A stretch of DNA of 64,000 nt from a virus, in IMG/VR virus record IMGVR_UViG_3300016476_001169, positions 1-64,000 of that record. The stretch is one strand, 5' to 3'. Within the stretch, counting starts at the first letter, position 1, and every line of letters begins with the position of its first letter. Below, piece after piece: positions 3,744 to 25,025 of the stretch. Below the pieces are notes generated by a model, which was not told the DNA's origin, did not search any database, and saw only the letters and a list, made by a program, of their open reading frames with translations. Made by a program: the position numbers and the translations under genes.

Positions 3744-3770
3744 TCTTATAAAAAAATATTCAATTAACCT
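3744..3770 (-). promoter_or_regulatory. putative phage late promoter (AGG-N19-TAAGA)
   Basis: Minus strand atAGGttaattgaatatttttttaTAAGAt, ending about 9 nt before the ATG at 3735. Confidence 0.5.
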
Positions 3771-5996: not shown

Positions 5997-6027
5997 AGTG
6001 TTCTCTCACAAAATAAACTTATTTAAG

Positions 6028-6054
6028 TTTTAAACAACTTATACTTTATAACCT
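6028..6054 (-). promoter_or_regulatory. putative phage late promoter (AGG-N19-TAAAA)
   Basis: Minus strand aaAGGttataaagtataagttgttTAAAAc. Confidence 0.55.
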
Positions 6055-8160
6055 TTGTCTCCAAGGGTTAAAAGCTATACTTCTTGGCTTTGGCAATGTG
6101 TTGAAAACCCTATCTTTCATAGCCTGAAAAGCTGCTCCAGCTACACAGTCTGGGATATCATCTTTCTGACCTCTTGGCGCTTCAATCTTCCAACCATTAC
6201 CCTTGTATTTTCTTTGCAGATCTAAAAATTGCTCTCTGGCGTAAGTTACATCTTTAATCGCTTTGAAATTACCATTTGGTAATTCACAATTAATAGTATT
6301 TATTCCATAAAAATCAATTCTACCATTCACAAAAAGCTCATAAAGGTTTTGATAAATCTCTCTTTGGAATTGACCTGTAAATGCAGTCATTTGGCATGGT
6401 ATTCCATTGTGTTTCATTCTTGTGATAGAAGCTTGGCTGGACCAGTGTTGGTCATAAGTAACCTGAACTAAATGGAACCTTTGGGAAAGTCGCATAATAT
6501 ATTCATCAACTTCATCTTGGTTGATAGGCTGGTTAGGGCCGAGTGGTTCCCAATAATGTATGTGGTCAACTACAATTCTTTGCAGTTCTCTTCCGTCAGA
6601 GCCAAATTCTCCCATTGGCACAGCGTGAACAATAGCCAATGAATAATAGTCACTTGAGTGAGCGGGATCTAAGTGCATAAAGTATCTTTGTAGTGGTTCT
6701 CCATACTCAGATCTTTTTTCATCGGCTCTGTTTCTAAAGGCTCTAAGCACATCCTCTTCTGATAGGAATGTATCACCAGCTCCAGATGAAAATTGGGCCC
6801 CATAAAAGATATTGTATGTTTTTCTACTCTTTGTTTTTTCAGACTCAAGCCAGCTCTTAGAGATTGTTGGATTTGAAAGCCATGTTGGTAATTGGAACAT
6901 CAATGTCAATTGGTCATCAAATGCTGATTCATACAAATTAAAGAATTTGCCCTGTGGAGCAAGTGGGTTGGAAATACAAATCATTTTACCATCTGCACCA
7001 AAGGTAGCAAGAGCAGGCTTTAGCTTGTCATACAAAATTTCATCATGGTTGCCTTCTGGATTGTTGCCTGCCATTTCAGCCATCTCGTCAATTATAACAA
7101 CTGCTACTGTAAGACCAACAAGGGTACTTGAGTTAGAGTGTCCAGAAATAGCCTGTATTGTTCCTGTCAACAATGATGTATTGCCTTGGGCGATTCTTCT
7201 TTCGTTCTCTCTCTTATCGTGAGGTGTCAAAAAGTGAATTTCGCCCTGGATTTCTTTGCCAACATACTGTGAAAAGAAGGGGCTTTTAAAACAATAAGAT
7301 CGCATTTTATCAAAAATAGCGCCCTTGGCCTGTCTTTGTGAGTTAGCAATGTTAACAATAGAAATAGTATCAAACTCTGTAAGTGGGTATCTTGATTGAG
7401 GGTGGTCCATCATCAGGAAGCGATAAACTTCATAAAGAGCAATAACAGAAACCATAAAGGATTTTCCACTACGTCGCCCAAGTACTAAAATTAATTCTTG
7501 GAACTTATCGCCCCATTTTTCAATAATTTGCTGCCTAACTCTTTCACTAATTTCTTCTGAGTGCAGCATATCCCACTCTGTAGTGTAATTCTCAGTTACA
7601 GGTCGGCTTTGTAATTCTGTAACATTGTTTCTGCCCTTCTCATTCAGGGCAGAAGACATTTGAAACTCATAATAAAACTTACGATCTTCAGGCAAGTATC
7701 TATTACACTGTAAACAGGGTGAGTTTTCTGGCTTAATCGCGGGTTCTTCGGGCCTCAATTTTCTATTTGGGTTTTGCATCTGTCGCACAAAGGTAACTTC
7801 GCTATCTTTGTGATTTTTCCAAATACAACCATTACAACCAGATTCTGCTTTCTCTTTTTCTATCTGTAAATGTGTATTACCAGGTGTGCCAGAGTAAAAA
7901 GCCTTACAAATTAATTTTTGCCAAGGTGTAAGCTTTAAACCTAAGAAATAAGGATGCTCACAGAAAGTAACAATATCTACAACGCCATCTGGGTTAAGAT
8001 TGTTCTTTTCTGGCTCAGGGGGCGAAGAAATTAGTTCTCGATTATCTTTAACTTGTATCTCATCGTCTTCAGAAGCTGTTTCTTGCTCGAACTTAAAAAG
8101 CTCTTGCAGCATACGTTGCTTCTGCTGATTAGCATCTTTTAAATCACTAGGTTTGGCCAT
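6046..8160 (-). CDS. terL: terminase large subunit
   Basis: LTPWQ adenine motif, Walker A LGRRSGKS, Walker B VVIIDE, ISNP motif III, and RNase H-like HLDPA...YDQ...KDDIPDC. Confidence 0.9.
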   Translation of the reverse strand: MAKPSDLKDANQQKQRMLQELFKFEQETASEDDEIQVKDNRELISSPPEPEKNNLNPDGVVDIVTFCEHPYFLGLKLTPWQKLICKAFYSGTPGNTHLQIEKEKAESGCNGCIWKNHKDSEVTFVRQMQNPNRKLRPEEPAIKPENSPCLQCNRYLPEDRKFYYEFQMSSALNEKGRNNVTELQSRPVTENYTTEWDMLHSEEISERVRQQIIEKWGDKFQELILVLGRRSGKSFMVSVIALYEVYRFLMMDHPQSRYPLTEFDTISIVNIANSQRQAKGAIFDKMRSYCFKSPFFSQYVGKEIQGEIHFLTPHDKRENERRIAQGNTSLLTGTIQAISGHSNSSTLVGLTVAVVIIDEMAEMAGNNPEGNHDEILYDKLKPALATFGADGKMICISNPLAPQGKFFNLYESAFDDQLTLMFQLPTWLSNPTISKSWLESEKTKSRKTYNIFYGAQFSSGAGDTFLSEEDVLRAFRNRADEKRSEYGEPLQRYFMHLDPAHSSDYYSLAIVHAVPMGEFGSDGRELQRIVVDHIHYWEPLGPNQPINQDEVDEYIMRLSQRFHLVQVTYDQHWSSQASITRMKHNGIPCQMTAFTGQFQREIYQNLYELFVNGRIDFYGINTINCELPNGNFKAIKDVTYAREQFLDLQRKYKGNGWKIEAPRGQKDDIPDCVAGAAFQAMKDRVFNTLPKPRSIAFNPWRQRL

Positions 8161-8162
8161 CT

Positions 8163-8876
8163 TTATTTACCATCACTCATTAATTGTTCTCTAAGCTGCT
8201 TTACAACCGCCCTGACAACTTGCTTATCTTCTTCGTATAGCATTTTATCGTGAATGTCCATAAGAACCTTAAAAAAGTTAATATTTTGAAGAGAACCAGA
8301 ATTGTCTCTGTCTTTCTTGATCTGAGAAATTTGCTTTGTCAAAGCTGCCATCACAGAAGCTTTCTTCATTTTGGCATCAGTAGATTTGCAGGTCATACCC
8401 TTGAGCTCAAAAAGCTGATCTGTCAAAGCCATGAGGGCTAAATCGTCTTCACGAAATTTATAAATCGAAAGATCATCTTCTCTATGCTGATAGTATAGCA
8501 TACCGTCTTGTTGAATTTTGCTCAAATCACAATGGTGAGCCATGTGAGTGGAGATTGATTCCCAAGTAATTTTAGCCCCGAAATGTCTTTCGAAGAAGGT
8601 CTTTACACGATTAGCTTTCTGCCCCTGTGAGATGAATTCATGCTCAAGTCTTACTCGCCAAGGCGAATTACAAATAACACATTTGTGTTCTACATAAGAA
8701 TTTGGATAATGCAAATCAGGACAAGGATCTGGTGGCAAAGGGATAATAGGAACAGAATCTGCTGTTAAATCTCTAAAAGAAATTAATGTGACTTCTGTTA
8801 TAGGGACAAGATTCAAACCTGAATGCTCTTTAAGATCAACGGGTATAAGATCTACAGGTTCTTTTTTATCACTCAT
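8163..8876 (-). CDS. putative terminase small subunit (Zn-binding HTH plus helical region)
   Basis: Immediately upstream of terL; CVIC...H..HHC motif followed by a coiled-coil. Confidence 0.5.
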   Translation of the reverse strand: MSDKKEPVDLIPVDLKEHSGLNLVPITEVTLISFRDLTADSVPIIPLPPDPCPDLHYPNSYVEHKCVICNSPWRVRLEHEFISQGQKANRVKTFFERHFGAKITWESISTHMAHHCDLSKIQQDGMLYYQHREDDLSIYKFREDDLALMALTDQLFELKGMTCKSTDAKMKKASVMAALTKQISQIKKDRDNSGSLQNINFFKVLMDIHDKMLYEEDKQVVRAVVKQLREQLMSDGK

Positions 8877-8919
8877 TTAGGGTAAAAACTCCAGATAATT
8901 TTATAGTTATTGTACAGAT

Positions 8920-8949
8920 AAAAAAACCGCACATAATAGTGCGGTTTTT
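8920..8949. terminator. bidirectional terminator
   Basis: AAAAACCGCAC-loop-GTGCGGTTTTT. Confidence 0.8.
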
Positions 8950-8966
8950 CTTCGGTTAAAATAAAA

Positions 8967-9758
8967 CTATGAGCGAACAACAGTTCTTAAATCTTGGAAA
9001 GAAAAAGAATTCTTGGTCGTATTTGAATCTTGTACTTTTGCTTCTCTTACAGCCTTCAAAAGTCTCTGATGGGGAGAAACCTTATCAGCTGCCGCAACTA
9101 CATGCTCACACGCTAAACCAAAATCTGCATAATGTGAATTTGCAAACTTAGCACAGGTACAAGTACCAGATTCTAAGCAAACTTCACAAGAGGCGCCACG
9201 CTCATTGGTGGCTACATACTTTCCATTAACTGATGCGACTCTAATCTCATTCTTGGTTGATTTTGCCGCGCAGTGAGAAACGAAAATTGCTTCCTCGAAC
9301 CATTTCTTCAATCCGTCATGAAGCTGTGACATTGAGCTCTTATCACTAAGAGCATTGGAAGCCAATCTTAAATATGAATTAAATGCCTTGTCATTAACTG
9401 GCATGATAGGATTCTTGCTTCTAGCAAGCTTATTCATAAATTCTTTAGGGCCCAATTCATTCAACTGCGCTTCTACTAAATTTTTAATTTCGCTATACTT
9501 CGCAGGAATGACGTAGGATTCTCGAACTTGATTTGTTTCAACGGAAGCAGTTCTGCCATAAGCAGCATCTACAGCAGACTGAATCAAACTATAATTATTT
9601 ATATCATTAGCGCCGAGAATTTCAAGGGTTTCATCGGCTGTAAAGCCCTTGGATTTGTAAGAATCAACTTTTTCACTAATGATGATTCTTTTGCCGTTTT
9701 CTGATTGGGATAGGGCTTTCTTGCCCCAGTCTGTGAAGGATTTTTCTTGTTCAGACAC
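8967..9758 (-). CDS. SWIM zinc-finger protein
   Basis: CTC...ACEHVVAA SWIM pattern (CxC-xn-CxH); GTG start with AGGAG SD. Confidence 0.7.
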   Translation of the reverse strand: MSEQEKSFTDWGKKALSQSENGKRIIISEKVDSYKSKGFTADETLEILGANDINNYSLIQSAVDAAYGRTASVETNQVRESYVIPAKYSEIKNLVEAQLNELGPKEFMNKLARSKNPIMPVNDKAFNSYLRLASNALSDKSSMSQLHDGLKKWFEEAIFVSHCAAKSTKNEIRVASVNGKYVATNERGASCEVCLESGTCTCAKFANSHYADFGLACEHVVAAADKVSPHQRLLKAVREAKVQDSNTTKNSFSFQDLRTVVRS

Positions 9759-9853: not shown

Positions 9854-10447
9854 TTATTCCATTATTAAGAAAGTTTTTTCAAGTATTTTTTTTAATTCTT
9901 CAATTGCCTTGTTTAAACGCTTGCTTAAGGCTGATTGTGAGATTTTTAAAATTTCACTTGCTTCATCTTGGGTTAGCTGTTCAAAGAAAATCATTAAAAT
10001 AACTTCTTTGTATTTTGGTTTCAATTCTGATAAAGCTTCTTGAATTACCATTCTTAATTCTATCTGCCCAAAGGGGTCATCCATTTCTGGATCCCATAAT
10101 TTTGGCATGTCGCTAAAATTAATTTCATTAGTTAAATGATTAGAATTTTTATTGAGAAGTTCTTTAGAATTCTTTAATAAATTTGGGAATAATCGATTTG
10201 AAACATAATAAGAAAAAAATGATCTATTAATATCATAGTTTTCTACTAATTTAATAAACTCAATAGAAGCTATGGAAACTAAATCATCTTTATATCTATT
10301 TAATGAAGACTCAATAAATAAACATTTTCTAATAGAGGCCTTAATTAATGGCTGATAAAATTCATGCAATTCACTCATAGCTTCAACATTGCCACTCTGG
10401 GCAGAAGCTACGAGCGAATTAATTTTATCAAAATGACATTCAGACAT
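9854..10447 (-). CDS. sigma-70 family RNA polymerase sigma factor (regions 2 and 4)
   Basis: AQSGNVEAMSEL...YQPLI, DDLVSIASIEFIKLVENYD, and region 4 LTQDEASEILKISQSALSKR. Confidence 0.9.
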   Translation of the reverse strand: MSECHFDKINSLVASAQSGNVEAMSELHEFYQPLIKASIRKCLFIESSLNRYKDDLVSIASIEFIKLVENYDINRSFFSYYVSNRLFPNLLKNSKELLNKNSNHLTNEINFSDMPKLWDPEMDDPFGQIELRMVIQEALSELKPKYKEVILMIFFEQLTQDEASEILKISQSALSKRLNKAIEELKKILEKTFLIME

Positions 10448-10455
10448 AAATTTGA

Positions 10456-11541
10456 TTATACATCTACAAAAGGCTGCAAGTATTTAGTTTTTTCTGAATA
10501 AGCAAAACCCAGTAATCCACTTACAATCTCACCATTTATTCCAGATCGCAAATCCATAATTGCAGAAATTGTTGCTCTGTATTTATCGACCAAGCTCTCA
10601 ATTTTCTTTGTAGAACATGATCTTATAGCCATCTGCAATCTGTATGGATTTAAGGCTGCTTTTGGCTTTGTTTCTGGCAAAGGCTCAAAATTGTCACCAA
10701 GATAATAATTTAAAGAGCCCTTTAATGCTATTTCATCTTGTATTTCAGATTCGCTAAGTTTATTACTCAGAGCACTCTTGACTTGAATATAAAGTTCAAG
10801 CTGTGATGCTAGAAGCCAAAGGACACCCTCATTTGAAGATGAAAGCTTATTATCTGAAAAGTATTTTACTATAACCGACAAGTCACCTTCTATAGCCTTA
10901 TCTATAAACTGCCAAATATCATTCTCGCGCTTAAAGTTGCAATAATTTGCCAAGTCATTGGATTCAATGGGCTTCTTGTCGCAACTATAAATAGCATTGA
11001 TTTTTGCAAGCTCTTTATCTAACATAATCAAATCATAGATAATCACATCTTTTTTCTGATTGTTAATTTTTACTTTGGCAGTACGAGTGGGCGCATAGCT
11101 TTGCAGCCAAGAATAACATTCTTGTTTGAGAGTTACATTAAAGTGCTCAGCCCAGTCCTGGATAAATTGCTTTAGACTGTCGCCTTGCATAGTGTGGGCA
11201 ATATAGTTGATTTTCTTTTTCTTAGAAGCCTTAGAAATAAAAGATTGTCGGCCATCAAAGTTATTGTAGGCGCAGGTTATTATAAGGCCACTAGCATGAA
11301 AATTACTTTCAACTAGCTCTAAGCACATGTTTAATACTTCCGCTTTTGGCTCATCAATTATAATAAGGTCTGGAACATCAAAGAATGGGAAAGCTGTGAG
11401 CGCTGATTTTACATCATCAGCGCTCGAATTAGTGTCAAATTTAATAATCTCTGGATTAGAAAGCTCTTCCTTTATTTCTTCAATGATGTACTTGAAGTAA
11501 AAAGGCTCACCTTCTAAAACCCATACTTTATTCCACGACAT
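10456..11541 (-). CDS. holA: DNA polymerase III delta subunit-like
   Basis: N-terminal VWVLEGEPFY, PFF...LIII, ELAKI and DIWQFIDKA pattern; adjacent to dnaN. Confidence 0.75.
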   Translation of the reverse strand: MSWNKVWVLEGEPFYFKYIIEEIKEELSNPEIIKFDTNSSADDVKSALTAFPFFDVPDLIIIDEPKAEVLNMCLELVESNFHASGLIITCAYNNFDGRQSFISKASKKKKINYIAHTMQGDSLKQFIQDWAEHFNVTLKQECYSWLQSYAPTRTAKVKINNQKKDVIIYDLIMLDKELAKINAIYSCDKKPIESNDLANYCNFKRENDIWQFIDKAIEGDLSVIVKYFSDNKLSSSNEGVLWLLASQLELYIQVKSALSNKLSESEIQDEIALKGSLNYYLGDNFEPLPETKPKAALNPYRLQMAIRSCSTKKIESLVDKYRATISAIMDLRSGINGEIVSGLLGFAYSEKTKYLQPFVDV

Positions 11542-12695
11542 TAATCTTCTTCCTCTTCTTCATCACCCTTTGGCAACACGGGGAAGATTAAATGGCTGTA
11601 TTCATTATCTACAACAATTAAAGCGGCCCCCATATTATTAGGCAATTGACGGAACTGAAGTTCAATCCAAGGTGAGACACAAATGTCAACGGCCTTCACA
11701 AGGTATTTCCATGCACTAAACGTAGAAGACTCGCCTTCGCTCTTCTGACAAACAACAGCATCTTGGCTTGCTCCACGGTCCTGCTCTTTAGTAGTAATAA
11801 CTATCTTACTGCCTTCAAGCTTAATTCCAACACTAGAATCTTTGGCCACTAAAGAGGCGAGCTTCAGAGCCCTCTGGAAATCACCCTTTGAAAGAGTTGC
11901 AGAGCCTTCTAATTCGCCATCGAAAAACTTTTCAACAGGAGCGAACTTTTTCTTCATTTCACTTTCTAGGACACAAGTGAAAACAGTGTCGTCCCACAAA
12001 AACCTAACATGGTTTGCAGCAAGTATTACCTTTACAGTTGATACATCAGCAAGCAAAACAGAAAGCGTTTCGGAGATATCTTTGCGTAAAAGAAGGGAAG
12101 CATCATCCATTGAATCTTCTTCTGGGATAGAGGCTGAATAAGATGAAATTCTATGAAAATCAGAGGCCTCTGCAACAATGCCACCAGAACAAACCTTTAG
12201 ACGTACAGCGGTCTGAGGAGCCTGTGAGCTGTCTGTTGATGCTGCAAATGCAGTAGCGTGTAGAGCAGTTGCCAAAGCGCTACCAGGAATTTCAAATTCG
12301 GTCCCAGTTGCTCGGAAAGCAATTGGAAGAAAGTCATCTGGATCGCCTACTGGGAAAGCAAACTTAGTTTGGCGAGAAGGGTCTGTACTGACCATGTAAA
12401 ATACATTATTCGCCTTATTAAAGGTACAGGAAACTTCGTTATCAGAAATCTGGCGAAGAAATTCAACAACCGCTTGACCAGCTACGCTAAACTTACCATC
12501 ATCGCCAGAAATAGAAACTGTTGGAACAACAATCTGCTGTTCAGAAGTTTCATTCAAAGAAGTTACTGTGAGCTTGTCAGCGTTCTTTTCAAATAAGAAT
12601 TCAGAGTCTGGCTGCCCCTTTGATTTTACATTGCAGGTTCTTAGCGCCTGGCTAAAACTCGCAAGAGCAATAGATGTATTTAGTGTAAATTTCAT
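11541..12695 (-). CDS. dnaN: DNA polymerase III beta sliding clamp
   Basis: MKFTLN start (ATG 12693-12695 with AAGGA SD), GDPDDFLPI, TAFAAS, ASDFHRIS and C-terminal HLIFPV; about 384 aa. Confidence 0.88.
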   Translation of the reverse strand: MKFTLNTSIALASFSQALRTCNVKSKGQPDSEFLFEKNADKLTVTSLNETSEQQIVVPTVSISGDDGKFSVAGQAVVEFLRQISDNEVSCTFNKANNVFYMVSTDPSRQTKFAFPVGDPDDFLPIAFRATGTEFEIPGSALATALHATAFAASTDSSQAPQTAVRLKVCSGGIVAEASDFHRISSYSASIPEEDSMDDASLLLRKDISETLSVLLADVSTVKVILAANHVRFLWDDTVFTCVLESEMKKKFAPVEKFFDGELEGSATLSKGDFQRALKLASLVAKDSSVGIKLEGSKIVITTKEQDRGASQDAVVCQKSEGESSTFSAWKYLVKAVDICVSPWIELQFRQLPNNMGAALIVVDNEYSHLIFPVLPKGDEEEEED

Positions 12696-12819
12696 TTCTA
12701 AACTTTCCTTAAATGGTTTCTCTAATTTATCGTGCGAAAAACACCCTTTGTGCACGAGTGGCTAGAGGAGAAAGGCAAGAATAGAATAAGTGGTTTGTTA
12801 CAATCAGGAGGTTAGAGCC

Positions 12820-12927: not shown

Positions 12928-12955
12928 AAAACCCCCTAGTCTCTAGGGGGTTTTT
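12928..12955. terminator. bidirectional terminator between convergent genes
   Basis: AAAACCCCCTAG-tct-CTAGGGGGTTTT. Confidence 0.85.
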
Positions 12956-13631
12956 CATTATCTAACTCTAATGTAATTTCGATCTCTTCATGTATTTCTA
13001 ATACATAACCATTTTGGTAATCGAAGAATACCTCTTTTGCCTTTTTCCTGATACGCATCAATGCATTGTCTACAGCCTTGGGCGTTTGATCTAAAGATTT
13101 AGCAATATCTTTATAGGAATCTTCTTCGGAATATTTCTCAAATACTGATCTTTCAAGAGGGGTTAGTCTTACTTTTAAAATTTCAGACAATTCGTCAAAT
13201 TCTTCTTGAATTAAAATCTCATTTAAGAGATCGCTGTCTTCATCTTGGATAAAATCTGCTAAAGACTGCTCAGAATCTTCCATCTCAGTTCTTACTGGAG
13301 TGGATAAGGAAATAGCATCATTTTGCAATTTAAATTTATTTCTGTTAGCAGAACTAATTTGTGTTATTAACCTTCTGGGAACACAAAGATTCACAGCGAA
13401 ATAGCGGAAAGCCATTCCTCCGTTTTCATCAAAGTCTTCAATGGCCTTCCACAAACCGATTCTTGCTTCTTGCCAGACATCGTCTTTCTCACTACCTCGA
13501 ATATAAAATCGATTAGTTTTCTTTTTAATGTCTGGTTCCAGTTCTTTTAAAATTTTATCAAAAGCTCTTTGATCGCCCTTTTTAGCGCGTCTTACCAAAG
13601 ATAATAAATGGTAGTCTGATGAATGTGCCAC
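12936..13631 (-). CDS. sigH: SigH/Spo0H-like sigma factor
   Basis: FYIRGSEKDDVWQEARIGLWKAIEDFD, RRLITQISSANRNK...NDAISL and SYKDIA...KAVDNALMRIRKK are SigH hallmarks. Confidence 0.9.
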   Translation of the reverse strand: MAHSSDYHLLSLVRRAKKGDQRAFDKILKELEPDIKKKTNRFYIRGSEKDDVWQEARIGLWKAIEDFDENGGMAFRYFAVNLCVPRRLITQISSANRNKFKLQNDAISLSTPVRTEMEDSEQSLADFIQDEDSDLLNEILIQEEFDELSEILKVRLTPLERSVFEKYSEEDSYKDIAKSLDQTPKAVDNALMRIRKKAKEVFFDYQNGYVLEIHEEIEITLELDNEKPPRD

Positions 13632-13690: not shown

Positions 13691-14806
13691 TTACTGCTTC
13701 GTAGCCTCTCTTAACTTTGCAAACCTATCAACAACTTTTAACAAATTAACCTGCACTAGTATGTCTGCAGGAACATTTTGCCGCAATTTAGATGATATTT
13801 CTAGTAGATTATTTACAACATCTACAATTTGTGAAGGTGAATAACCTGGCACAGTCACTCCATTTAATGTTCCACCATAAGTAATGAAAGATAAAGCTTC
13901 ATCTCTGTCTTCTTCTGGTGTTTTTAAGACTTTATACTTAGTAACAATCATTAAAGCCTTAGCCGCTTCATTAAGCAAAGCCGCCAAGTCTCTACCTTCT
14001 AATGTTGCTGTTTCTATCAATTGAAAGATTTTACCTCTGTTTAGGCAAGCAATGGCTTCTAGTAGATCAATAGATAATTGTCTAGGGGCCCTTTTTAATA
14101 AAGATCTTACATTATCTTCTGTGACACCTATGTTTATCAATTGAGAAAGAATAACAAGGGCCTTTCTGGCACTCCCCTCTGCAGATTCACAGATTAACTT
14201 CAGAGCAGATTCGTCACTAGAAACATTTTCAGCCTTGGAAACCTTCTTCAAAATAGACATCATGTCCCTGTCATTGACTAAAGACATTTCATGCTGCTCA
14301 CAGCGGCTTTGAATAGCCCCTACAACCTTGTCTTTGTCAGTTGTGCATAGGAAGAACTTAATGTATGCTGGTGGCTCTTCTATGGGCTTCAGAAGGGCAT
14401 TCTGGGCCTGTGTAGTCAGCATGTGACATTCATCTAGAATGATGATTCGCCATTTGCCATTAGTTGGTGGGATTCGCAATCTTTCAGAGATCAATTCACG
14501 GGCTTCATCAACCTTGCCATTGACAGCACAGTTGATTTCCATAACATCACGACATCGATCTTCTTTAATCTGGACACAAGTGGTGCATTTGCCGCAAGGT
14601 TCTACGCCCTGGAGATTTTCACACAGTAAAGCCATTGCCATAACTCTGGCAGTAGTTGTCTTACCAGTACCTGGAGGGCCATAAAATAAGTAACTGGATG
14701 GGTGGGTGTCTGTTTTAATCTGCGCCTTAAGAACCTTGGTGACAAAAGGCTGTGTGATGTCCTCAAATGTCAGAGGTCGGTATTGATTGTATAAATTGTT
14801 ATTCAC
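13691..14806 (-). CDS. dnaX: DNA polymerase III gamma/tau subunit (short form)
   Basis: LYNQYRPLTFED, GPPGTGKTT, PCGKCTTC zinc module, ILDECHML, QSRC. Confidence 0.93.
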   Translation of the reverse strand: MNNNLYNQYRPLTFEDITQPFVTKVLKAQIKTDTHPSSYLFYGPPGTGKTTTARVMAMALLCENLQGVEPCGKCTTCVQIKEDRCRDVMEINCAVNGKVDEARELISERLRIPPTNGKWRIIILDECHMLTTQAQNALLKPIEEPPAYIKFFLCTTDKDKVVGAIQSRCEQHEMSLVNDRDMMSILKKVSKAENVSSDESALKLICESAEGSARKALVILSQLINIGVTEDNVRSLLKRAPRQLSIDLLEAIACLNRGKIFQLIETATLEGRDLAALLNEAAKALMIVTKYKVLKTPEEDRDEALSFITYGGTLNGVTVPGYSPSQIVDVVNNLLEISSKLRQNVPADILVQVNLLKVVDRFAKLREATKQ

Positions 14807-16146: not shown

Positions 16147-17154
16147 TTATAATCCAAATAGTCCAAGGCCGTAGCTAACAATAATAGCTGTAATTGCAGA
16201 AGCTGGAATTGTCAACACCCAGGCATAAATCATGTCTCTTGCCACTACCCAACGAACTGCGTTCTTGTGCTTAGCTAAGCCAACACCAAAGATAGAACTA
16301 GAAATAACATGGGTTGTGCTAACTGGAATGCCTAATTTACTTGCAATTAGAATAACCAAACTTGCGCCTGTTTCTGCTGCGAATCCTTGTGAAGGATCCA
16401 TTCTTAAAATCTTATGGCCCATTGTTTTGATAATTCTCCATCCTCCAGCGGCAGTGCCAAGTGCCATAACAACAGCACAAGAGACCATGACCCACATAGG
16501 AATGATAATTTTATCAGATTTCTCTAAAAAACCTCCAGCAACCAGGGCCAAAGTAATAATACCCATGCTCTTTTGAGCATCATTAGAACCATGAGAGAAA
16601 GCCATCATTGAAGATGAAAGAATTTGCATAGGCTTAAAGAACATCATTGCTTTAGATGGATTTGCCTTTTTAGCCAGCCAATAAATAAGCATCATGATTG
16701 TAAAACCAATTATGATACCAATCATTGGAGACATAACAAGGGGTACTAAAACTTTTTCCTTGATGCCATCCATTTTAAGGGCTGACCAGCCACCTTTGAC
16801 AACTACTGCACCACAGAGGCCACCAATTAAAGCATGCGAACTACTACTCGGGATGCCAAATTTCCAAGTAACCAAATTCCAAACTATTGCACCAACGATA
16901 GCTGAAAGAATAACAGATTGAGTTACAAACTGTTTATCTACTAATCCGCCAGCGATAGTTTTAGCAACATTCTGTGCAACCATAGCTCCAACAAAATTTA
17001 AAACAGCGGCCATAATGATGGCTGTTCTTGGGCTTAAAACTCTTGTCGAAACAACTGTTGCAATCGCATTTGCAGTATCATGGAAGCCATTTATGTAATC
17101 AAACGCTAGAGCCAGAATGACAACTAGCACTACAAGAAAAAATGGCTCAGGCAT
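16147..17154 (-). CDS. pit: inorganic phosphate transporter (PiT family)
   Basis: NGFHDTANAIAT, HGSNDAQK, PSSSSH and PVSTTH signatures; multiple TM helices. Confidence 0.95.
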   Translation of the reverse strand: MPEPFFLVVLVVILALAFDYINGFHDTANAIATVVSTRVLSPRTAIIMAAVLNFVGAMVAQNVAKTIAGGLVDKQFVTQSVILSAIVGAIVWNLVTWKFGIPSSSSHALIGGLCGAVVVKGGWSALKMDGIKEKVLVPLVMSPMIGIIIGFTIMMLIYWLAKKANPSKAMMFFKPMQILSSSMMAFSHGSNDAQKSMGIITLALVAGGFLEKSDKIIIPMWVMVSCAVVMALGTAAGGWRIIKTMGHKILRMDPSQGFAAETGASLVILIASKLGIPVSTTHVISSSIFGVGLAKHKNAVRWVVARDMIYAWVLTIPASAITAIIVSYGLGLFGL

Positions 17155-17746
17155 AATACTTCACACGGATACGTTCGAGAATTGTTGCAACATGCTCACA
17201 GGCATCAGTGGCAGCTTCAATCTTTGAGAAAATATCTTTCCAGGCAATTAACGATTTGAAATCTGTTTCATTCTTCCAGAGATCACTAAGTGCTTCTCGG
17301 TAAGTTCTATCACAGATGTTTTCAAGCTCATGAATGGAAATAAGAACATCACCAATATTCTTTCCCTTGTTATTAAGGGAAGCAACTGCCTTTTCTGTGG
17401 CAACGCAAATGTCAACAAGCTTTTTGCTTATGTCGAGCATCAATGGTTTGATATCTGTTACATTATAGATGACAATTCTCGATGAAACAGATTCAATCTT
17501 GTCAATAATGTCGTCTAGAGTTGAGCAAAGAATATTTAAATCTTCTTTGTCAAGCGGTGTGATAAAAGTGCTATCAACTAATACACTCATTTCATGAACT
17601 AGCTTATCAGCAGTAGATTCAATTACGGCTATTCTGCCATTCTGCAAATTGAAATCTTTATCTTTTACCATAACTAAGAGTTCTTCAGCTGCTTGAGTTG
17701 CAAAAGCAGCCTGTGACTCCATCAAATTATAAAATTTTACATTCAT
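17147..17746 (-). CDS. DUF47/PhoU-like phosphate transport regulator
   Basis: ESTAD...FITPLDKED...LDDIID and ENICD...Y...L motifs; canonical position upstream of pit. Confidence 0.9.
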   Translation of the reverse strand: MNVKFYNLMESQAAFATQAAEELLVMVKDKDFNLQNGRIAVIESTADKLVHEMSVLVDSTFITPLDKEDLNILCSTLDDIIDKIESVSSRIVIYNVTDIKPLMLDISKKLVDICVATEKAVASLNNKGKNIGDVLISIHELENICDRTYREALSDLWKNETDFKSLIAWKDIFSKIEAATDACEHVATILERIRVKYYA

Positions 17747-17755
17747 TATTTATTT

Positions 17756-18610
17756 TTATCCTGTACTTCCAAATCCACCATCATTACGGGTGGTCTTTTC
17801 AATATCATCAACTTGTGTAAACTGCACATGAGCAATTCTGCGAGGAATCATCTGAGCAATTCTGCAAGGTAGTTCGAGGTCTGGGGCAGATTCATCGACT
17901 TTAATCAAAGCAATCATTATTTCACCAGTGTAGGCTCGGTCAATAATACCCACGTTGTTAGCAAGCATGTAGCCACTCTTAATAATAGAGCTGCGTGGAA
18001 CTACATCCAAATACCAACCAAAAGAAGGCTTAACTTTAATGCCAGTAGTGTACAAAGTTGTCTTCGAATGGAATTTCTTTACTACATCCACAATGGTCAA
18101 ATCGTATCCAGAATCGCTAACTCTCTCTTTTGAAGGAGCTACAGCATCTTCACGGGTTTTGCACCATTCAAAAATGTCCGCACTTTGAACATGAGGGAAA
18201 ACAGTCATACAATAACGGCACCAGCTATAGTAAGCGTCATAATTCATGCGCTTATACACTGTGGCCCCTTCATAAAGTTTTCCAAGAAAATCTAGACAGT
18301 TTGTTCCAGATAAAGTAAATAAGCCCTTACCCTCATTAAAGCTATAAGCCATAGGCATGTTAGTAAAAGTACAAACCTTTTCCAAAAATGCAGCCTTGAT
18401 TACATCCATGCTAATAAAAGGAAGTTCGTATACACTGTTTTTAGGGTTGTTTATCTGAACTTTGTTACCTTCAAAATAGCCCCTGAGCAAATGCCAGACA
18501 AGTGATTTATCTACATCTGGTAGATAAATTTCTTCAAAATCATTCTTGTCATTCATGGCTAAGCCAGCTTCATAAGCTGACTTTTCATCAATAATATTTT
18601 CAATTGACAT
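17756..18610 (-). CDS. dut: trimeric dUTPase with N-terminal LAGLIDADG-like domain
   Basis: dUTPase motifs DSGYDL, PRSS, GIIDRAYTGE, RIAQ and RNDGGFGSTG; N-terminal WHLLRGYFEG. Confidence 0.9.
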   Translation of the reverse strand: MSIENIIDEKSAYEAGLAMNDKNDFEEIYLPDVDKSLVWHLLRGYFEGNKVQINNPKNSVYELPFISMDVIKAAFLEKVCTFTNMPMAYSFNEGKGLFTLSGTNCLDFLGKLYEGATVYKRMNYDAYYSWCRYCMTVFPHVQSADIFEWCKTREDAVAPSKERVSDSGYDLTIVDVVKKFHSKTTLYTTGIKVKPSFGWYLDVVPRSSIIKSGYMLANNVGIIDRAYTGEIMIALIKVDESAPDLELPCRIAQMIPRRIAHVQFTQVDDIEKTTRNDGGFGSTG

Positions 18611-19071: not shown

Positions 19072-19551
19072 TTACAATTCTAGGGTTTCTTCAAAAGTCA
19101 TTTTGCATTCAGAACACAATTGCCAACCGTCTTCATTTGAATGACCGCAATTCATGCAGTCTGAAAACCAATCCTCTGGTATTTGCCTAATTAGTTTTAT
19201 TAATTCAACTAAACCAAGGTTAGTGTCAGACAATTTAATGTGGATAAGCTTATGCACTAAACTATCTGGATAATTTACATAACCCACACTATTTTTAAGA
19301 GACTTCCTATAGCATGTGTCCAGCACAGGATTTTCAAACTTTAAAATGTTGCCGTCTAAGTTGATTACATAATTCTGATCTGCTTTTTCAGCTATAGAAA
19401 TCAATGTATTCCAGTCTGTGGTGTGGTCAAACTTAGGCTCTGGAACTTCAGGCACATAAGGCTCGCCATTTAGACCTTTAAGAAAAGCTTGCATTTCTCT
19501 TTCTCTTTTGTCAGCTAAAAAAGATTTGTACCAATTTTGCCAATTACTCAT
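19072..19551 (-). CDS. hypothetical protein with C-terminal zinc ribbon
   Basis: CMNC...CSEC. Confidence 0.65.
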   Translation of the reverse strand: MSNWQNWYKSFLADKREREMQAFLKGLNGEPYVPEVPEPKFDHTTDWNTLISIAEKADQNYVINLDGNILKFENPVLDTCYRKSLKNSVGYVNYPDSLVHKLIHIKLSDTNLGLVELIKLIRQIPEDWFSDCMNCGHSNEDGWQLCSECKMTFEETLEL

Positions 19552-19561
19552 AATTAAAATG

Positions 19562-19584
19562 AGCCCCCTTTTCAGGGGGCTTTT
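19562..19584. terminator. terminator-like hairpin
   Basis: AGCCCCCT-tttc-AGGGGGCT directly after the spoVS-like stop. Confidence 0.65.
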
Positions 19585-19586
19585 CC

Positions 19587-20000
19587 TTATCTCGCGTGAA
19601 TCTCAGGAATTGCAAAAATCCTCATACAGATACCCTTTGCAGGTTTGCCTCCGATTTCAGCTGTGTATGTCCATTGTGTATTTACCAATCTTATACTGCG
19701 AGAGTATCTTTCGATTTCACTAGCAGCCATCTGGAAGGCTATAGAAGCTGTAAAAAGCGACTTTGCACCAACACAGTGAACATTGACCCAACCTTCCTGA
19801 TTTTTTCTTAGAACATGCAAAATGCTTCTAGATAAACCAACTGGATCTGTAGCTTTTTTAGAGGGATCGTCTGAATGAGCATCTCCTCCCTTAACCCTTA
19901 GGGTGAATGAATTATTTGAATCATTAGATGTAATGTTATTTGTTGACATTTTGAGATTCTCAATCCAATTTTCATTTTTGTCAAATTCATCAGGGGCCAT
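19587..20000 (-). CDS. spoVS: SpoVS-family protein (Alba-like fold)
   Basis: LRV...DPVGLSRSILHVLR...VNVHCVGAKSLFTASIAF..A...EIGG aligns by eye with SpoVS (LKV..SPNSVAGALAGVLR..EIQAIGAGALNQAVKA..IA..QIDG). Confidence 0.75.
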   Translation of the reverse strand: MAPDEFDKNENWIENLKMSTNNITSNDSNNSFTLRVKGGDAHSDDPSKKATDPVGLSRSILHVLRKNQEGWVNVHCVGAKSLFTASIAFQMAASEIERYSRSIRLVNTQWTYTAEIGGKPAKGICMRIFAIPEIHAR

Positions 20001-20004
20001 TTTA

Positions 20005-20991
20005 TTATCCTTCTATCCCACAAATAACCAATTTATGCTTCAAATCATCTACATTGTCTTCAAACTCTTCAACAGAGCAATTATACACTTCAGGCTGATA
20101 AATGATCTTTTTAGATTTAGAAATCAAAATCATTTCCAGGATTTGTCTTTGCACATCTGAAAGATTTGTTGACCATAATCTGGAGATTGGATCATCATGA
20201 ACTACAGTGTCATAAACATTAATTTCCGACTCACCACTATCATCTGAAATGTAATTAGATGAAGGCTTGACATTCATTGTGTCATGGTCTGGAAATAAAT
20301 CGTTAAATTTTTCAAACAAAAGGGGCGAGTGCTTAGAAAGTAAATGCTTCTTAAGGGCCTCATTTTGTGTTAAGAATAAACCATTAGGATCATCAGCAAA
20401 CTTTTCATTTACTGTTTGTGGAGTTTTATGCGACTTACACATAGGACAATCTTTGAGCTTGTCAATGTCGTGGCCCATGAGTGCTAATTGCTCCCACAGT
20501 AAATGTCCGTGATGATTCAGGAGGTGAGTAGATAGTGTTTGAGTGTGCTTGTTGCAGATTGGGCAAACAACTGCAATGTTTCTAATTCCTGCAGCTTGAA
20601 ACTTTACAATGTTAGTGTAATAGTTGTTCAAGTTGGACCAGAAATAGTTTTTAAACTCGCCAGTGCCGTTGTACTTTGACTCAGGACGCTTATCGCGTGG
20701 CTGCCACTTTCTTAGTGCCTTGCAAAATACATAAAGGTAGTCTTGGACAAAATCCTCACGGGTATCATAAAAGTGCTTGTATTTCTTAAACCATACTTTT
20801 ACGAAGTCTAATGGCGGATAGATTGAGCAAATCTCATCATAAAATCTATCTGCTTCTTTTGCTCTATTGTTTTCGAGAGCGGCTTGGTATCCAACAATAG
20901 CTTTTTCAAGCTTGATTTGGATGTTTTTGTTTATTAACTGTTGTTCTTCTTTTGATCGTTTAGTGATTTTCTCACTTAAGTCTTCAACCAT
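20005..20991 (-). CDS. sigma-factor-like protein with two inserted C2H2 zinc fingers
   Basis: Region-2-like REDFVQDYLYVFCKALRKWQP..GEFKNYFW..LNN; zinc fingers CPIC-x9-H-x4-H and CPMC...H-x4-H; region-4-like LSDVQRQILEM. Confidence 0.6.
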   Translation of the reverse strand: MVEDLSEKITKRSKEEQQLINKNIQIKLEKAIVGYQAALENNRAKEADRFYDEICSIYPPLDFVKVWFKKYKHFYDTREDFVQDYLYVFCKALRKWQPRDKRPESKYNGTGEFKNYFWSNLNNYYTNIVKFQAAGIRNIAVVCPICNKHTQTLSTHLLNHHGHLLWEQLALMGHDIDKLKDCPMCKSHKTPQTVNEKFADDPNGLFLTQNEALKKHLLSKHSPLLFEKFNDLFPDHDTMNVKPSSNYISDDSGESEINVYDTVVHDDPISRLWSTNLSDVQRQILEMILISKSKKIIYQPEVYNCSVEEFEDNVDDLKHKLVICGIEG

Positions 20992-21075
20992 TTTATGGCT
21001 CCAATAATTATTTAGATAATTGAGTTATCCAATTAATTATAATTGAATTAGAACAATTTAGCAACTTATTAATGA

Positions 21076-21103
21076 AAAAGGGAAGAAATAAATCTTCCCT
21101 TTT
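21076..21103. terminator. terminator
   Basis: AAAAGGGAAGA/TCTTCCCTTTT after recJ. Confidence 0.75.
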
Positions 21104-21104
21104 C

Positions 21105-22859
21105 TTATCTTGATATGTTTTCTAAACTTGATGGTTTAAAATCTTCAACTGTAAAAGTTAATTCAGTTCTTCCTCTAAACTCTTCAAAAGATAATTTACC
21201 AATCAAATCAATTTTGTCTCCAACCTTTGGAGCCAAATGTCCCTTTCTCCAAGCTATTGCTGAAACAAAATTATTAGAATGCTTTTTATCACTCTTTAAT
21301 CTCATCTTTAGATGCTTGCCATCTGCACCCACTGTGCTACAGCTTTCAACGACAGCATTTCTTACTAAGAACATTGGTTCAGGATTGCCAGAGCCAAATG
21401 GGGCCATTTTAATCATGTGCTTAAACACTTGCTCATCAAGCTGAGAAACTAAAAGGCCAGCATCTATGTCATAGACCTTTTTATCCTCAATTTCGCCATC
21501 TAAAACCTTTTTGGCATAAGCATTCAATTCGGTTCTTAGGGCATCAAGATTCTTTTCTGGAACCTCAAATCCAGCAGCAAAAGCGTGACCTCCACAAACA
21601 ACAGAACCGTCAGATCTTCTTGAAAATAGGGGCCAGACTTTCTCAGATTTTAAAGCATCTAGGATGTTAAAATCTCTAACGGAACGGCAGGAGCCTTTGG
21701 CTTTTCCTTCTTCATTAATAGTACATGCCAGAGTTGGTCGTGCGAATTGTTCTGCAAGCTTTCCCGCCACAAGACCAATGAGTCCTGGATGCCAACCTCG
21801 AGCGCCAACCACAATGACATAACTATCGCTTACATCGCCTACTAGAGCTATGGCCTCTTCTACAGTTTGCTTTTCTTTCTTTTGACGAGTGTCATTCGCT
21901 TTGTTTAGGACATCTGCAAAATAAGCTGCTCTAGAGGGCACTCTTTCTAAAAGTAAGTCTAGGGCTATTGCACTGTCTCCCATGCGCCCAATGGCGTTAA
22001 TTCGGGGCCCCAAAAAGAATCCAATACTAGTTGTGTTCACAGTTTTAACACCAGCAACTTTTAAAAGTTCTGCAACGCCTGGCTTTTCAGCCTTAGTCAA
22101 TTGTTGACAACCGAGATGTACAAGAATTCTGTTTTCGTCTACCATTGGTGCAACGTCTGCAACTGTGCCTAAAGCAACATAATCCAGCAGTTCATCCATA
22201 AGCTTTTGACGATCAAACTGCATTCTGTCCCCAAGCGCAAGCATGGTTTTAAAAGCAATGCCAACACCAGCAAGGCCATTGAATGGATACTTAGAATCAT
22301 GTCTATTTGGGTTTACAACACCAACAGCTTCTGGGATTCTATCATCATCTGAAGGGTGGTGGTGGTCAGTAATGATCAGGTCGACACCATTTGCCTTTGC
22401 GTAAGAAGCTGCTTCAAAAGCAACAATGCCACAGTCAACAGTCATTAGGATTTTTGCGCCAGCAGCGATAGCCTTGTCAACTGTTGCGACTCTTACATCA
22501 TAACCGTCCTGGATTCTATGTGGTACATGATATTCAAAATGGGCCCCAAATAATCTTAAACTGTGAGTAATAACAGATGTAGAAGTTACACCGTCAACAT
22601 CGTAGTCTCCATGCACATAGATATATTCCTGTTCTTTGATTGCTTTTTCAAGCCTATCTACAACAGGTTCTATGTCTGGCAACAACCAAGGGTCGTGCAG
22701 TTTTTCTGGACTTAGGTCAAAAAATTCCTCAGCCTTTTCAACAGTATCAATCCCACGCTGAATCATGACAGAAGCTATAGGTAAGGGTATCATTAACTCT
22801 GCAGCCAGTTCCTGTGCTTCAGACAGTGGTGTCTTTTTTAATTTCCAAACAGTTTCCAA
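21105..22859 (-). CDS. recJ: single-stranded DNA exonuclease RecJ
   Basis: GDYDVDG, TVDCG, ITDHH, GTVADV, PRINAIGR, GGHAFAAG, PFGSGNPEP. Confidence 0.96.
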   Translation of the reverse strand: METVWKLKKTPLSEAQELAAELMIPLPIASVMIQRGIDTVEKAEEFFDLSPEKLHDPWLLPDIEPVVDRLEKAIKEQEYIYVHGDYDVDGVTSTSVITHSLRLFGAHFEYHVPHRIQDGYDVRVATVDKAIAAGAKILMTVDCGIVAFEAASYAKANGVDLIITDHHHPSDDDRIPEAVGVVNPNRHDSKYPFNGLAGVGIAFKTMLALGDRMQFDRQKLMDELLDYVALGTVADVAPMVDENRILVHLGCQQLTKAEKPGVAELLKVAGVKTVNTTSIGFFLGPRINAIGRMGDSAIALDLLLERVPSRAAYFADVLNKANDTRQKKEKQTVEEAIALVGDVSDSYVIVVGARGWHPGLIGLVAGKLAEQFARPTLACTINEEGKAKGSCRSVRDFNILDALKSEKVWPLFSRRSDGSVVCGGHAFAAGFEVPEKNLDALRTELNAYAKKVLDGEIEDKKVYDIDAGLLVSQLDEQVFKHMIKMAPFGSGNPEPMFLVRNAVVESCSTVGADGKHLKMRLKSDKKHSNNFVSAIAWRKGHLAPKVGDKIDLIGKLSFEEFRGRTELTFTVEDFKPSSLENISR

Positions 22860-22878: not shown

Positions 22879-23658
22879 CTATAACTTTAAATTAATTTCT
22901 TCTAAATCATTATCAAACAAACGATTCACAGCTTTATTTAAAATCTTAAAGCCATACTTTAATAAAAACGTATCAGGGTCATGGCCCTCTGGCAATGAAA
23001 TAATCTTCAATTTCATGCCCACTTCTTCTAATGTTGGCAGCATGTGCTCAAGCGCTTTTCTTCCCGCTTCATCGCCGTCTAGGAGCGCTATGGCAGTATT
23101 GCAATATCTGGATAGTTTAGTTGCATGCCAATCTGTTAATCTAGTTCCACACAAAGCTACATTGTTCTCAAATCCAAAAGAATTTAATGTAAGACTGTCA
23201 AAATAACCTTCTACCAAGAATACATAATCAGTTTCACGCATAGAATGCTTTGCTATGTCTAAATTAAACAAATGAAATTTCTTAGGGAAGCTTTCATTAA
23301 TCCACTTCCCGCGTTTCCATTGATCTATTCTTGACTGGGCTTCGGCAGGATTGCTTGGGTACATTTGCCAAAAAGCTAATTCTACAGCCTCAATCAATGG
23401 GTCATACTTCCTACCTGCAAAGGCAACTATGTTTCCATAGGCATCTTTAATTGGTACTGTTATTCTACCTTTCATAAGAGGAGAAAGTATGATTTTGTTA
23501 TTTTGGTAATGACTAAAATAAGGCGGGCAAAAACCAAGCTTTGCTTTAATTGCTGCTTCCTTGTTGATGCCTCTGCTTTCGAGATAAGACATGCCACCAT
23601 CAAAGCTTAATAGATTCTTAGTCAACTGTTGAGAAGTGAGTTCTTTATTGTCAGTCAT
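22879..23658 (-). CDS. dnaG: DNA primase catalytic core (Toprim) without zinc-binding domain
   Basis: YLESRGI, GRITVPI, AFAGR, LVEGYFD, LDGDEAG, DPD. Confidence 0.9.
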   Translation of the reverse strand: MTDNKELTSQQLTKNLLSFDGGMSYLESRGINKEAAIKAKLGFCPPYFSHYQNNKIILSPLMKGRITVPIKDAYGNIVAFAGRKYDPLIEAVELAFWQMYPSNPAEAQSRIDQWKRGKWINESFPKKFHLFNLDIAKHSMRETDYVFLVEGYFDSLTLNSFGFENNVALCGTRLTDWHATKLSRYCNTAIALLDGDEAGRKALEHMLPTLEEVGMKLKIISLPEGHDPDTFLLKYGFKILNKAVNRLFDNDLEEINLKL

Positions 23659-23720: not shown

Positions 23721-25025
23721 TTATTCTTCGTCAAATGGAATTTCTGGTTCTGGGCCACCATAAAATTCATCATCCATGATACTGGAATCAATGTTTAGCA
23801 ATGTTTCATCAATCTCTTCAGAAGATGTTGACTTGCCTTCTTTCAAAGCTTCAGTAACAGCCTTGATTTGAATGTCGGAAAGTTTAATTCTTCCACAAAC
23901 ATATTCAAAACCTGTTTTGCTTAAATCGCCTCTGGTAAGAACAGATGGTGCAGCTGCTTCTATAAGCATGTTAACAAACTCATATTCATCTTTGCTTTGC
24001 GCCAAAAGCTCACCAGTATTTACATCGATATACTTATAAACCTTGCGAATACAAGAAATGTATCCCTTGTCCTTAATTGCAGGATGGTTCAATGTTCTAT
24101 GCAAGAAGTCCTTAATTGGATTACCTTCAAACTTACCAAAGTAAATTGGGAATTCAGTTGTTGTATCTGGAGCAGACTGACGAGTCTTCTTGAGCAAACA
24201 CTTGCTACGTCCACCAATACGCTCACCATTATCACCAATAATTTCAGCAGTTGCGCCCTTCATCTTTGTAAACCAAAGACGCATACTTGAGAAGTATCCA
24301 ATAGCTTCTCCACCAGTAGACTTCAAAACGAATTCTTGTTGCATGCCACGCTTCTCTGTGCTATAGCGTAACTGGTTAATAAGAATTACAATTGTCCCTG
24401 TGCGGCCACAGATTTCAGTGAGCTTAGATACAAATCTAGAACAGAACTTTGCGTGAGCTCCAAGCTTATCTGCGTCTGAAAGATCCTTTTCATGATTTGC
24501 CATAGGGATCATAGCTGTGATAGAGTCAACAATAATGAGGCCGTATTCGCCAGAATCTGCTGCTGCCCAAATCCACTTACCCCAATTCTCAGCTGCACCA
24601 AGATTCTCATAGGTTTCAAAGGTGTCTGCATCACGGGTGTCTACGCCAATGGCTTGAGCTCTTTCATCAGAGTAAGAATACTCGACGTTCATAACTGCTA
24701 CACGGAGGCCCATTTTTTGAGCTTGTGCAGCCATCTTTAAAGCTGTGTAAGATTTACCAGATGAGTTTTCACCTGCAAATTCAGCAACTGTACCCTCTTT
24801 AATACCACCATAGGGGCCCATAAGAGAATCAATTTCTACAATTCCAGAAGGAATGTAAATCTTATCGCTATCATCTAAGTCGGAGCCAATATTAACGCCT
24901 TCTGGGTTAAGCTTAAAAGCAGATAAGCGAGCTTGAATCTGCTTGCGTCGGGCTTCTGCTCTATCTTCAGGTGTAAGCACCTGTGGAGCAACTTCCTTCT
25001 TGGTTTCTTTTTTCTTTGCTGTCAT
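23721..25025 (-). CDS. recA: RecA/UvsX-like recombinase (divergent)
   Basis: IPSG..EID, Walker A GENSSGKS, IIVDSI, LINQLR, TGGEAIGYFSSMRL. Confidence 0.9.
   Translation of the reverse strand: MTAKKKETKKEVAPQVLTPEDRAEARRKQIQARLSAFKLNPEGVNIGSDLDDSDKIYIPSGIVEIDSLMGPYGGIKEGTVAEFAGENSSGKSYTALKMAAQAQKMGLRVAVMNVEYSYSDERAQAIGVDTRDADTFETYENLGAAENWGKWIWAAADSGEYGLIIVDSITAMIPMANHEKDLSDADKLGAHAKFCSRFVSKLTEICGRTGTIVILINQLRYSTEKRGMQQEFVLKSTGGEAIGYFSSMRLWFTKMKGATAEIIGDNGERIGGRSKCLLKKTRQSAPDTTTEFPIYFGKFEGNPIKDFLHRTLNHPAIKDKGYISCIRKVYKYIDVNTGELLAQSKDEYEFVNMLIEAAAPSVLTRGDLSKTGFEYVCGRIKLSDIQIKAVTEALKEGKSTSSEEIDETLLNIDSSIMDDEFYGGPEPEIPFDEE

Follow-up and report, generated by a model that had tools for sequence, protein, structure and literature searches.

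Comparison of sequence and predicted structure indicates that a gene on the minus strand of a viral contig probably encodes a highly derived sigma-70-family initiation factor, made by a huge phage without its own polymerase. Two Cys2His2 zinc fingers in the chain stand in place of the sigma-3 domain, not of sigma-4. The window analysed here, a stretch of 64 kb, is the first part of a 104-kb IMG/VR viral contig with a CheckV completeness of 29%, which implies a phage of roughly 350 kb.

Domain organization and family

The protein, 328 residues long, was modelled by AF2 with a pLDDT of 79. Its domains follow one another in the order region 1.2/2, finger 1, a short helix, finger 2, a helix, an acidic linker and a region-4 fold, and every string quoted for it in a preliminary description of this DNA is present in the open reading frame. 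The gene and its parts are as follows, with the basis of each assignment in brackets.

20005–20991, minus strand: zinc-finger sigma-like protein (open reading frame of 328 amino acids; coordinates include the stop codon)
20578–20952, minus strand: sigma region 1.2/2-like domain, residues 14–138 (hhalign, VIA and motif register)
20509–20574, minus strand: zinc finger 1, residues 140–161, ligands C143, C146, H156 and H161 (ligands invariant, n = 39)
20329–20454, minus strand: zinc finger 2, residues 180–221, ligands C182, C185, H216 and H221, with a 30-residue loop (invariant ligands)
20164–20295, minus strand: acidic, poorly ordered linker in place of region 3.2, residues 233–276 (charge, pLDDT and alignment)
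20008–20163, minus strand: sigma region 4-like four-helix domain with an acidic last helix, residues 277–328 (VIA, Foldseek and hhalign)

Pfam gave no match to the protein at E ≤ 0.1 and no sigma model over its gathering score; surveys based on Pfam will therefore undercount phage sigma factors. PHROGs assigned it to no family, tblastn against 50,697 GenBank phage records returned zero matches, and a whole-protein profile compared with PDB sequences yielded nothing below E 0.2, and no sigma factor. In Foldseek searches with the full model, the top rows were almost all sigma factors (PDB) or phage sigma factors (BFVD), with weak E-values.

The family to which the protein belongs comprises 22 clusters at 90% identity and 52 representatives at 50%, all metagenomic and none with an informative name. 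Across its alignment of 39 sequences the mean column identity is 26%, and no column is invariant apart from those of F81 and the eight Cys/His ligands; at this level of identity such invariance excludes chance.

A sigma region 2 domain at the N terminus

By profile comparison, the N-terminal domain is homologous to sigma region 2. The reference used in hhalign was the family of the window's own canonical sigma factor at 12936–13631, which carries Pfam regions 2 and 4. Whole profiles aligned with a probability of 88.6% (E 2.7e-6) and the N-terminal domain alone with a probability of 94.8% (E 4.8e-8, 98 columns), against E 0.18–0.52 in cross-domain and reversed-sequence controls. Residues 22–138 of the AF2 model superpose by VIA on domain 2 of SigA (4x8k) with Z 7.8 and an rmsd of 3.1 Å, 99 residues being aligned; further sigma-2 matches are SigI6 (Z 7.8), SigW (Z 7.6), RpoS, SigC, SigK and sigmaE (Z 6.2–6.8), and also pro-SigK. 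In total, about ten independent sigma-2 structures match at Z 6.2–8.0 with the whole domain covered. All VIA Z values of this protein are below 9, a level that helical domains can reach by chance, and the weight of these model-based matches is in their convergence on one domain type and their full coverage, each Z being modest. The sigma-70 region 2 fold, on whose presence the preliminary description had staked its reading, is thus found both by hhalign and by VIA.

The motif register agrees with this assignment. In the hhalign alignment, residues D80-F81-V82-Q83-D84 are in register with the D-L-x-Q-E motif of region 2.2; among the 39 members the first position is D in 34, the second F in 39, the fourth Q in 18 and the last D or E in 32. 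Residues F113, Y116, F117 and W118 align with the aromatic cluster of region 2.3, and the aligned columns of both regions are among the most conserved of the family. Regions 2.3–2.4 of sigma factors recognise and melt the −10 element, and the columns matching them here (F113, N115, F117, L121, N127, K130 and R137) are among the best conserved. The best Pfam Sigma70_r2 match of the family, by member P0054 over residues 65–111 (E 3.7e-5), scores 23.9 bits against a cut-off of 24. An ESM Atlas search returned at rank 2 (score 0.91) a viral cluster of which 100% of members carry PF04542.

Acidic linker and region-4-like tail

Residues 233–276 are predicted with a pLDDT of only 42–59 in the AF2 model and carry a net charge of −7; the mean over the 39 members is −7.2, and the linker is acidic in every one of them. 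Region 3.2 is acidic in ordinary sigma factors as well. The linker is colinear with region 3.2 of the canonical sigma family, linker and tail together aligning at E 7.8e-4 by hhalign.

The tail reads LSDVQRQILEMI...YNCSVEEFEDNVDDLKHKL. Modelled alone, residues 262–328 reach a pLDDT of 80, and 10 of the 11 best VIA matches of this model are sigma-4 domains at Z 5.1–5.6, among them SigA R4 (Z 5.6, rmsd 2.5 Å, 57 residues aligned), sigma-32, SigD, BldN, SigK, SigH, WhiG, SigW and SigF. The top Foldseek rows are likewise sigma-4 domains (TM 0.53–0.59, E 0.5–7). By hhalign the tail aligns weakly with the canonical sigma family, at E 8.4e-4 and 24% probability, with controls at 0.18–0.44. In this alignment the recognition helix is matched by the last helix of the tail, and the L-T-x-x-E-x-x-V helix of region 4.1 by LSDVQRQIL.

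That last helix, residues 305–323, has a net charge of −4, within a range of −1 to −5 across its own clade, and the first helix of the helix-turn-helix is nearly lost in the window protein. A region-4-like tail with an acidic recognition helix, as it had been described from the sequence, is therefore borne out by the sigma-4 matches in VIA and Foldseek and by the net charge. In the most distant clade of the family the last helix is basic (+3 to +6) and follows the canonical G-Y-T-x-K-E-I-C pattern; since the tail is basic and canonical there and acidic in the core clade, it descends from a working region 4. To go by these charges, region 4 of the core clade has lost its DNA-reading face, and ordinary −35 reading is unlikely with an acidic recognition helix and the first helix nearly lost. 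In another clade, four cysteines are invariant within the sigma-4-like domain; the window protein lacks them.

Zinc fingers at the position of sigma-3

No sigma-3 domain is present: residues 139–232 are made up of the two zinc fingers, and hhalign aligns nothing there. The sites read C143-P-I-C146-x9-H156-x4-H161 and C182-P-M-C185-x30-H216-x4-H221. Two Cys2His2 sites between the region-2-like and region-4-like parts had been recorded in the preliminary description, and they hold across the 39 relatives, in which all eight ligands are invariant. In the AF2 model, finger 1 consists of strands at residues 140–141 and 148–149 followed by a helix at residues 153–160.

The fingers stand in place of sigma-3, not of sigma-4. 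In the holoenzyme, sigma-3 lies beside the extended −10 element and the spacer DNA. The earlier suggestion that the fingers replace −35 recognition is unsupported by their position, which is between region 2.4 and the acidic 3.2-like linker, with the sigma-4-like domain still there. A replacement of region 4 by the fingers was likewise considered and rejected, as the fingers precede the acidic linker and the sigma-4 fold comes after it.

Nine residues separate the inner Cys and His ligands of finger 1, and 30 those of finger 2; in a classical beta-beta-alpha finger the spacing is 12. Short family members have a finger-2 loop of only about 10 residues, and in many relatives the loop contains a nested Cys4 knuckle. 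The window protein has none, and on this comparison the knuckle is one that it has lost. Pfam zf-Di19 (PF05605) matches 17 of the 39 members, one of them over the cut-off (27.6 against 27.5 bits), and the window protein only at E 0.24. A profile of the finger module found in the PDB only the RING of RBX1 and the fingers of ZBTB7A, at E ≥ 0.1, which were not counted as evidence, and an ESM Atlas search with the finger module alone gave no usable match.

A two-gene unit with a SpoVS-family protein

The gene lies on the minus strand within a bacterial-type replication and recombination module, with Pol III alpha, DnaB, the clamp loader and the beta clamp encoded farther along. Its immediate surroundings, in the direction of transcription, are the following.

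23721–25025, minus strand: RecA-like gene
22879–23658, minus strand: DnaG Toprim primase part
21105–22859, minus strand: RecJ
21076–21103, minus strand: hairpin and T-run after the RecJ gene, read as the terminator of the upstream unit (inverted repeat; stem GGGAAGA/TCTTCCC, then TTTTT)
21036–21064, minus strand: sigma-70/SigA-type promoter-like site, TTGCTA-17-TATAAT (10 of 12 consensus positions; a consensus match only)
19587–20000, minus strand: divergent SpoVS-family (Alba-like) protein of 137 amino acids, second gene of the unit (PF04232 in orthologues; synteny)
19562–19581, minus strand: GC-rich hairpin and T-run after the SpoVS-like gene, read as the terminator of the unit (AGCCCCCTGAAAAGGGGGCT, then CATTTTAATT)

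A GGAG ribosome-binding site precedes the ATG of the zinc-finger sigma gene by 9 nt, and a site of the form TTTACA-17-TATAAT (11 of 12 positions) is found upstream of the orthologue in four related loci (L009, L013, L015 and L026). From these signals, the sigma and SpoVS-like genes read as a two-gene unit bounded by terminators, probably transcribed by the host holoenzyme.

The preliminary description had placed the sigma-like gene directly upstream of spoVS, and a SpoVS-family gene is indeed the next one downstream, separated from the sigma stop codon by 4 nt. The window's own copy matches PF04232 at E 0.11 (12.7 bits), and 8 of 11 orthologues match the model, the best at E 2e-6; the one PDB match of the 137-residue protein is the SpoVS-related 2eh1, at E 0.48. 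A SpoVS-like gene adjoins the sigma gene in all 35 IMG/VR loci, on contigs of up to 379 kb, and in all 35 the order RecA, primase, RecJ, sigma and SpoVS-like is kept on one strand. The association extends to distant clades. In L037, from a clade about 27% identical to the window protein, a SpoVS gene (31.8 bits) adjoins the sigma gene on the opposite strand, and in L040, from the clade with a canonical region 4 (about 22% identical), a tandem double SpoVS gene (187.8 bits) comes directly after it; both neighbours are over the PF04232 cut-off. Scans of IMG/VR for loci of the P0068, P0043 and P0054 clades found none. The SpoVS-family protein is a likely partner of the zinc-finger sigma, as co-factor or regulator.

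Sigma factors, polymerase and promoters of the phage

The gene had been described as the third sigma-like gene of the window, and two others do pass Pfam thresholds. These canonical sigma genes, at 9854–10447 (Pfam region 4) and 12936–13631 (regions 2 and 4), are on the minus strand and interleaved with clamp and clamp loader genes; the genes that they flank are holA-like (10456–11541), dnaN-like (11541–12755) and dnaX-like (13691–14806).

Five near-complete relatives (300–379 kb, 84–100% complete) were examined. Each has a single copy of the zinc-finger sigma gene and two to four canonical sigma factors. None of the five matches PF00562, the model of the RNA polymerase beta subunit, which very divergent phage polymerases could escape. 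SpoVS matches number at most one per genome and occur in three of the five, beside the sigma gene.

A search for enriched upstream words gave no promoter class assignable to the zinc-finger sigma. On the same contig, at 84000–104191 and thus outside the window, about 20 copies of one leaderless promoter unit were seen, composed of CCTTTGTAG..TTTGGGG, a GC hairpin, TTTT-ATCTTAAAAA, 14–16 nt and TTC-TATAAT-AGT-ATG, with the −10-like box ending 3 nt before the start codon. The array suggests a phage-specific promoter class from which a block of small genes would be transcribed into leaderless mRNAs; it has both upstream and −10-like boxes and is not tied to any one sigma factor.

Mode of action and alternative explanations

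As a derived initiation factor, the protein would use its sigma-2 domain (residues 14–138) to clamp onto the beta-prime coiled-coil of host RNA polymerase, as the retained region 2.2 motif suggests, and to read and melt a −10-like element, for which the conserved 2.3–2.4 columns argue. The fingers, at the sigma-3 position, would make a contact with DNA or protein, a role proposed from that position, and the acidic disordered linker would take the place of region 3.2. The fold of the sigma-4-like domain suggests that it may still dock on the beta flap; its acidic helix in this clade points to a loss of −35 reading. Expression would be early and driven by a host-type promoter, the gene being transcribed together with that of the SpoVS-family (Alba-fold) protein, and the factor would work with, or be controlled by, that protein. 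More tentatively, and as a possibility to which we give limited credence, the zinc-finger sigma and the SpoVS-like protein may form a two-protein promoter-recognition device, in which region 4 no longer contacts DNA and the upstream contact comes either from the fingers (at the spacer or the extended −10 element) or from the SpoVS-like protein.

The main rival explanation, which we consider unlikely, is a core-binding modulator or sigma decoy. Such a protein would bind polymerase through its sigma-2-like and sigma-4-like domains without promoter-specific initiation, and would either displace the host sigma or hold the polymerase for the phage's two canonical sigma factors. The acidic recognition helix and degenerate helix-turn-helix are what a modulator might show, the phage already has two canonical sigma factors, and no promoter class could be assigned to the zinc-finger one. 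The explanation is weakened by the conservation of the recognition and melting columns of regions 2.3–2.4, which are among the best conserved of the family and which a pure decoy would not need; distant clades, moreover, keep a basic region 4 of the canonical pattern.

Less probable again is a free-standing zinc-finger regulator, derived from a sigma factor, that has lost polymerase binding and acts with the SpoVS-like protein on DNA or RNA. In its favour, no feature of the family is better conserved than the fingers, RecA, primase and RecJ are encoded in the same replication and recombination module as the gene, and the fold family of the partner is predicted to bind nucleic acids (Rigden and Galperin 2008, PMC2732212). 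Against such a regulator stand the retained core-binding motif of region 2.2, D-F-x-Q-D (D in 34 and F in 39 of the 39 members), and the full colinear sigma layout, which, with its acidic 3.2-like linker, is found in all clades.

A regulatory role, in which the fingers would not form a contact surface but would sense redox state or zinc and gate sigma activity like zinc-binding anti-sigma domains, is very improbable. The number of cysteine sites does vary by clade (the nested Cys4 of the finger-2 loop and the Cys4 of the sigma-4-like domain), but the eight ligands are the same in every member, and Cys4 sites are more redox-labile than those of the Cys2His2 type. A switch of this kind would be compatible with the derived sigma factor favoured here, not exclusive of it.

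Comparison with known factors

The best whole-length structural match of the protein by VIA is a group 3 sigma factor, SigB of S. aureus (8x6g_H, Z 8.9). With this group, which includes SigB, SigF, SigH, sigma-32, sigma-28 and the window's own sigma factor at 12936–13631, it has in common a region 1.2/2 with the D-x-x-Q-[DE] helix and the aromatic 2.3 cluster, an acidic 3.2-like linker and a C-terminal four-helix region-4 fold, all in the same domain order. It differs from the group in having no sigma-3 and, instead, two Cys2His2 fingers of about 95 residues; in a basic loop of 9–13 residues inserted between regions 2.2 and 2.3; and in an acidic recognition helix in region 4.2, and it reaches no Pfam sigma cut-off.

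The ECF (group 4) sigma factors SigW, SigK and sigmaE likewise have a compact build of sigma-2 and sigma-4 without sigma-3, and their matches are as strong as those of group 3 (SigW, 5wuq: Z 7.6 for sigma-2 and Z 5.1 for sigma-4). ECF factors have only a short linker between the two domains, and a basic helix reads the −35 box, whereas the zinc-finger sigma has a region 1.2-like helix, the finger module and an acidic region 4.

A functional analogy may be drawn with the late factors of phage T4, of which gp55 is a sigma-2-only protein and gp33 a sigma-4-like flap binder without DNA binding. These, as is proposed for the zinc-finger sigma, are phage factors for the host polymerase that have given up −35 reading and need a co-factor; in both cases the genes lie among replication genes. 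No sequence relation of the zinc-finger sigma to gp55 or gp33 was found. Here, in contrast to T4, both sigma domains are in one chain together with new fingers, and the conserved neighbour is SpoVS-like, not a sliding clamp.

Among zinc fingers, the Di19-type or non-classical Cys2His2 fingers (PF05605) also have paired CP-x-C ... H-x4-H sites with short spacing; the bacteriophage sigma context of the present fingers is unrelated to theirs, and finger 2 has a long, variable loop.

Few bacterial proteins have been studied as thoroughly as sigma factors, whose set of domains (sigma-1.1, 2, 3 and 4) is regarded as fixed. A family conserved in single copy, with Cys2His2 fingers for sigma-3, would be a new promoter-recognition architecture, and a rare structural use of such fingers among bacteria and phages. 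No paper describing a phage sigma factor with Cys2His2 fingers was found in the literature, and the terms C2H2, Zn-finger and zinc finger are absent from the jumbo-phage survey PMC7824862. The pairing with SpoVS is constant even where clades have diverged to 22% identity. It offers a lead that can be tested on the role of SpoVS, a family whose function in bacteria is, to our knowledge, still unknown. If the two proteins did form a recognition device, a sigma factor would here be assembled in a novel way, and the SpoVS family would gain its first molecular role in transcription initiation.

Other genes of the window and related loci

Beyond the SpoVS-like gene are genes for a small zinc-ribbon protein, a dUTPase, and PhoU-like and PitA-like proteins. 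The zinc-ribbon protein, 159 amino acids long and encoded just downstream of the sigma/SpoVS unit (19072–19551, minus strand), ends in a C-terminal CxxC..CxxC zinc ribbon with weak Pfam matches and has a counterpart in one related locus only (L002). In the 284-residue product of 17756–18610 (minus strand), the dUTPase domain is confined to residues 156–284, and the first 155 residues match no family. A PitA-like phosphate permease reading frame and its PhoU-like neighbour of 199 amino acids, both read from the sequence, occupy 16147–17746 (minus strand).

Two related loci have further features beside the sigma gene. The tandem double SpoVS protein of L040 (positions 6023–6613 of this metagenome contig), which follows the most divergent zinc-finger sigma, contains two PF04232 domains. 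In L037, a related 183-kb phage, the SpoVS gene adjoins a SpoVR-like gene (6629–9439, minus strand) that is interrupted by an intein carrying a LAGLIDADG homing endonuclease.

Elsewhere in the window, at 3769–4863 on the minus strand, is a gene for UDP-galactopyranose mutase (Pfam GLF, E 2e-71). Its presence in a phage genome suggests that a glycan containing galactofuranose is modified.
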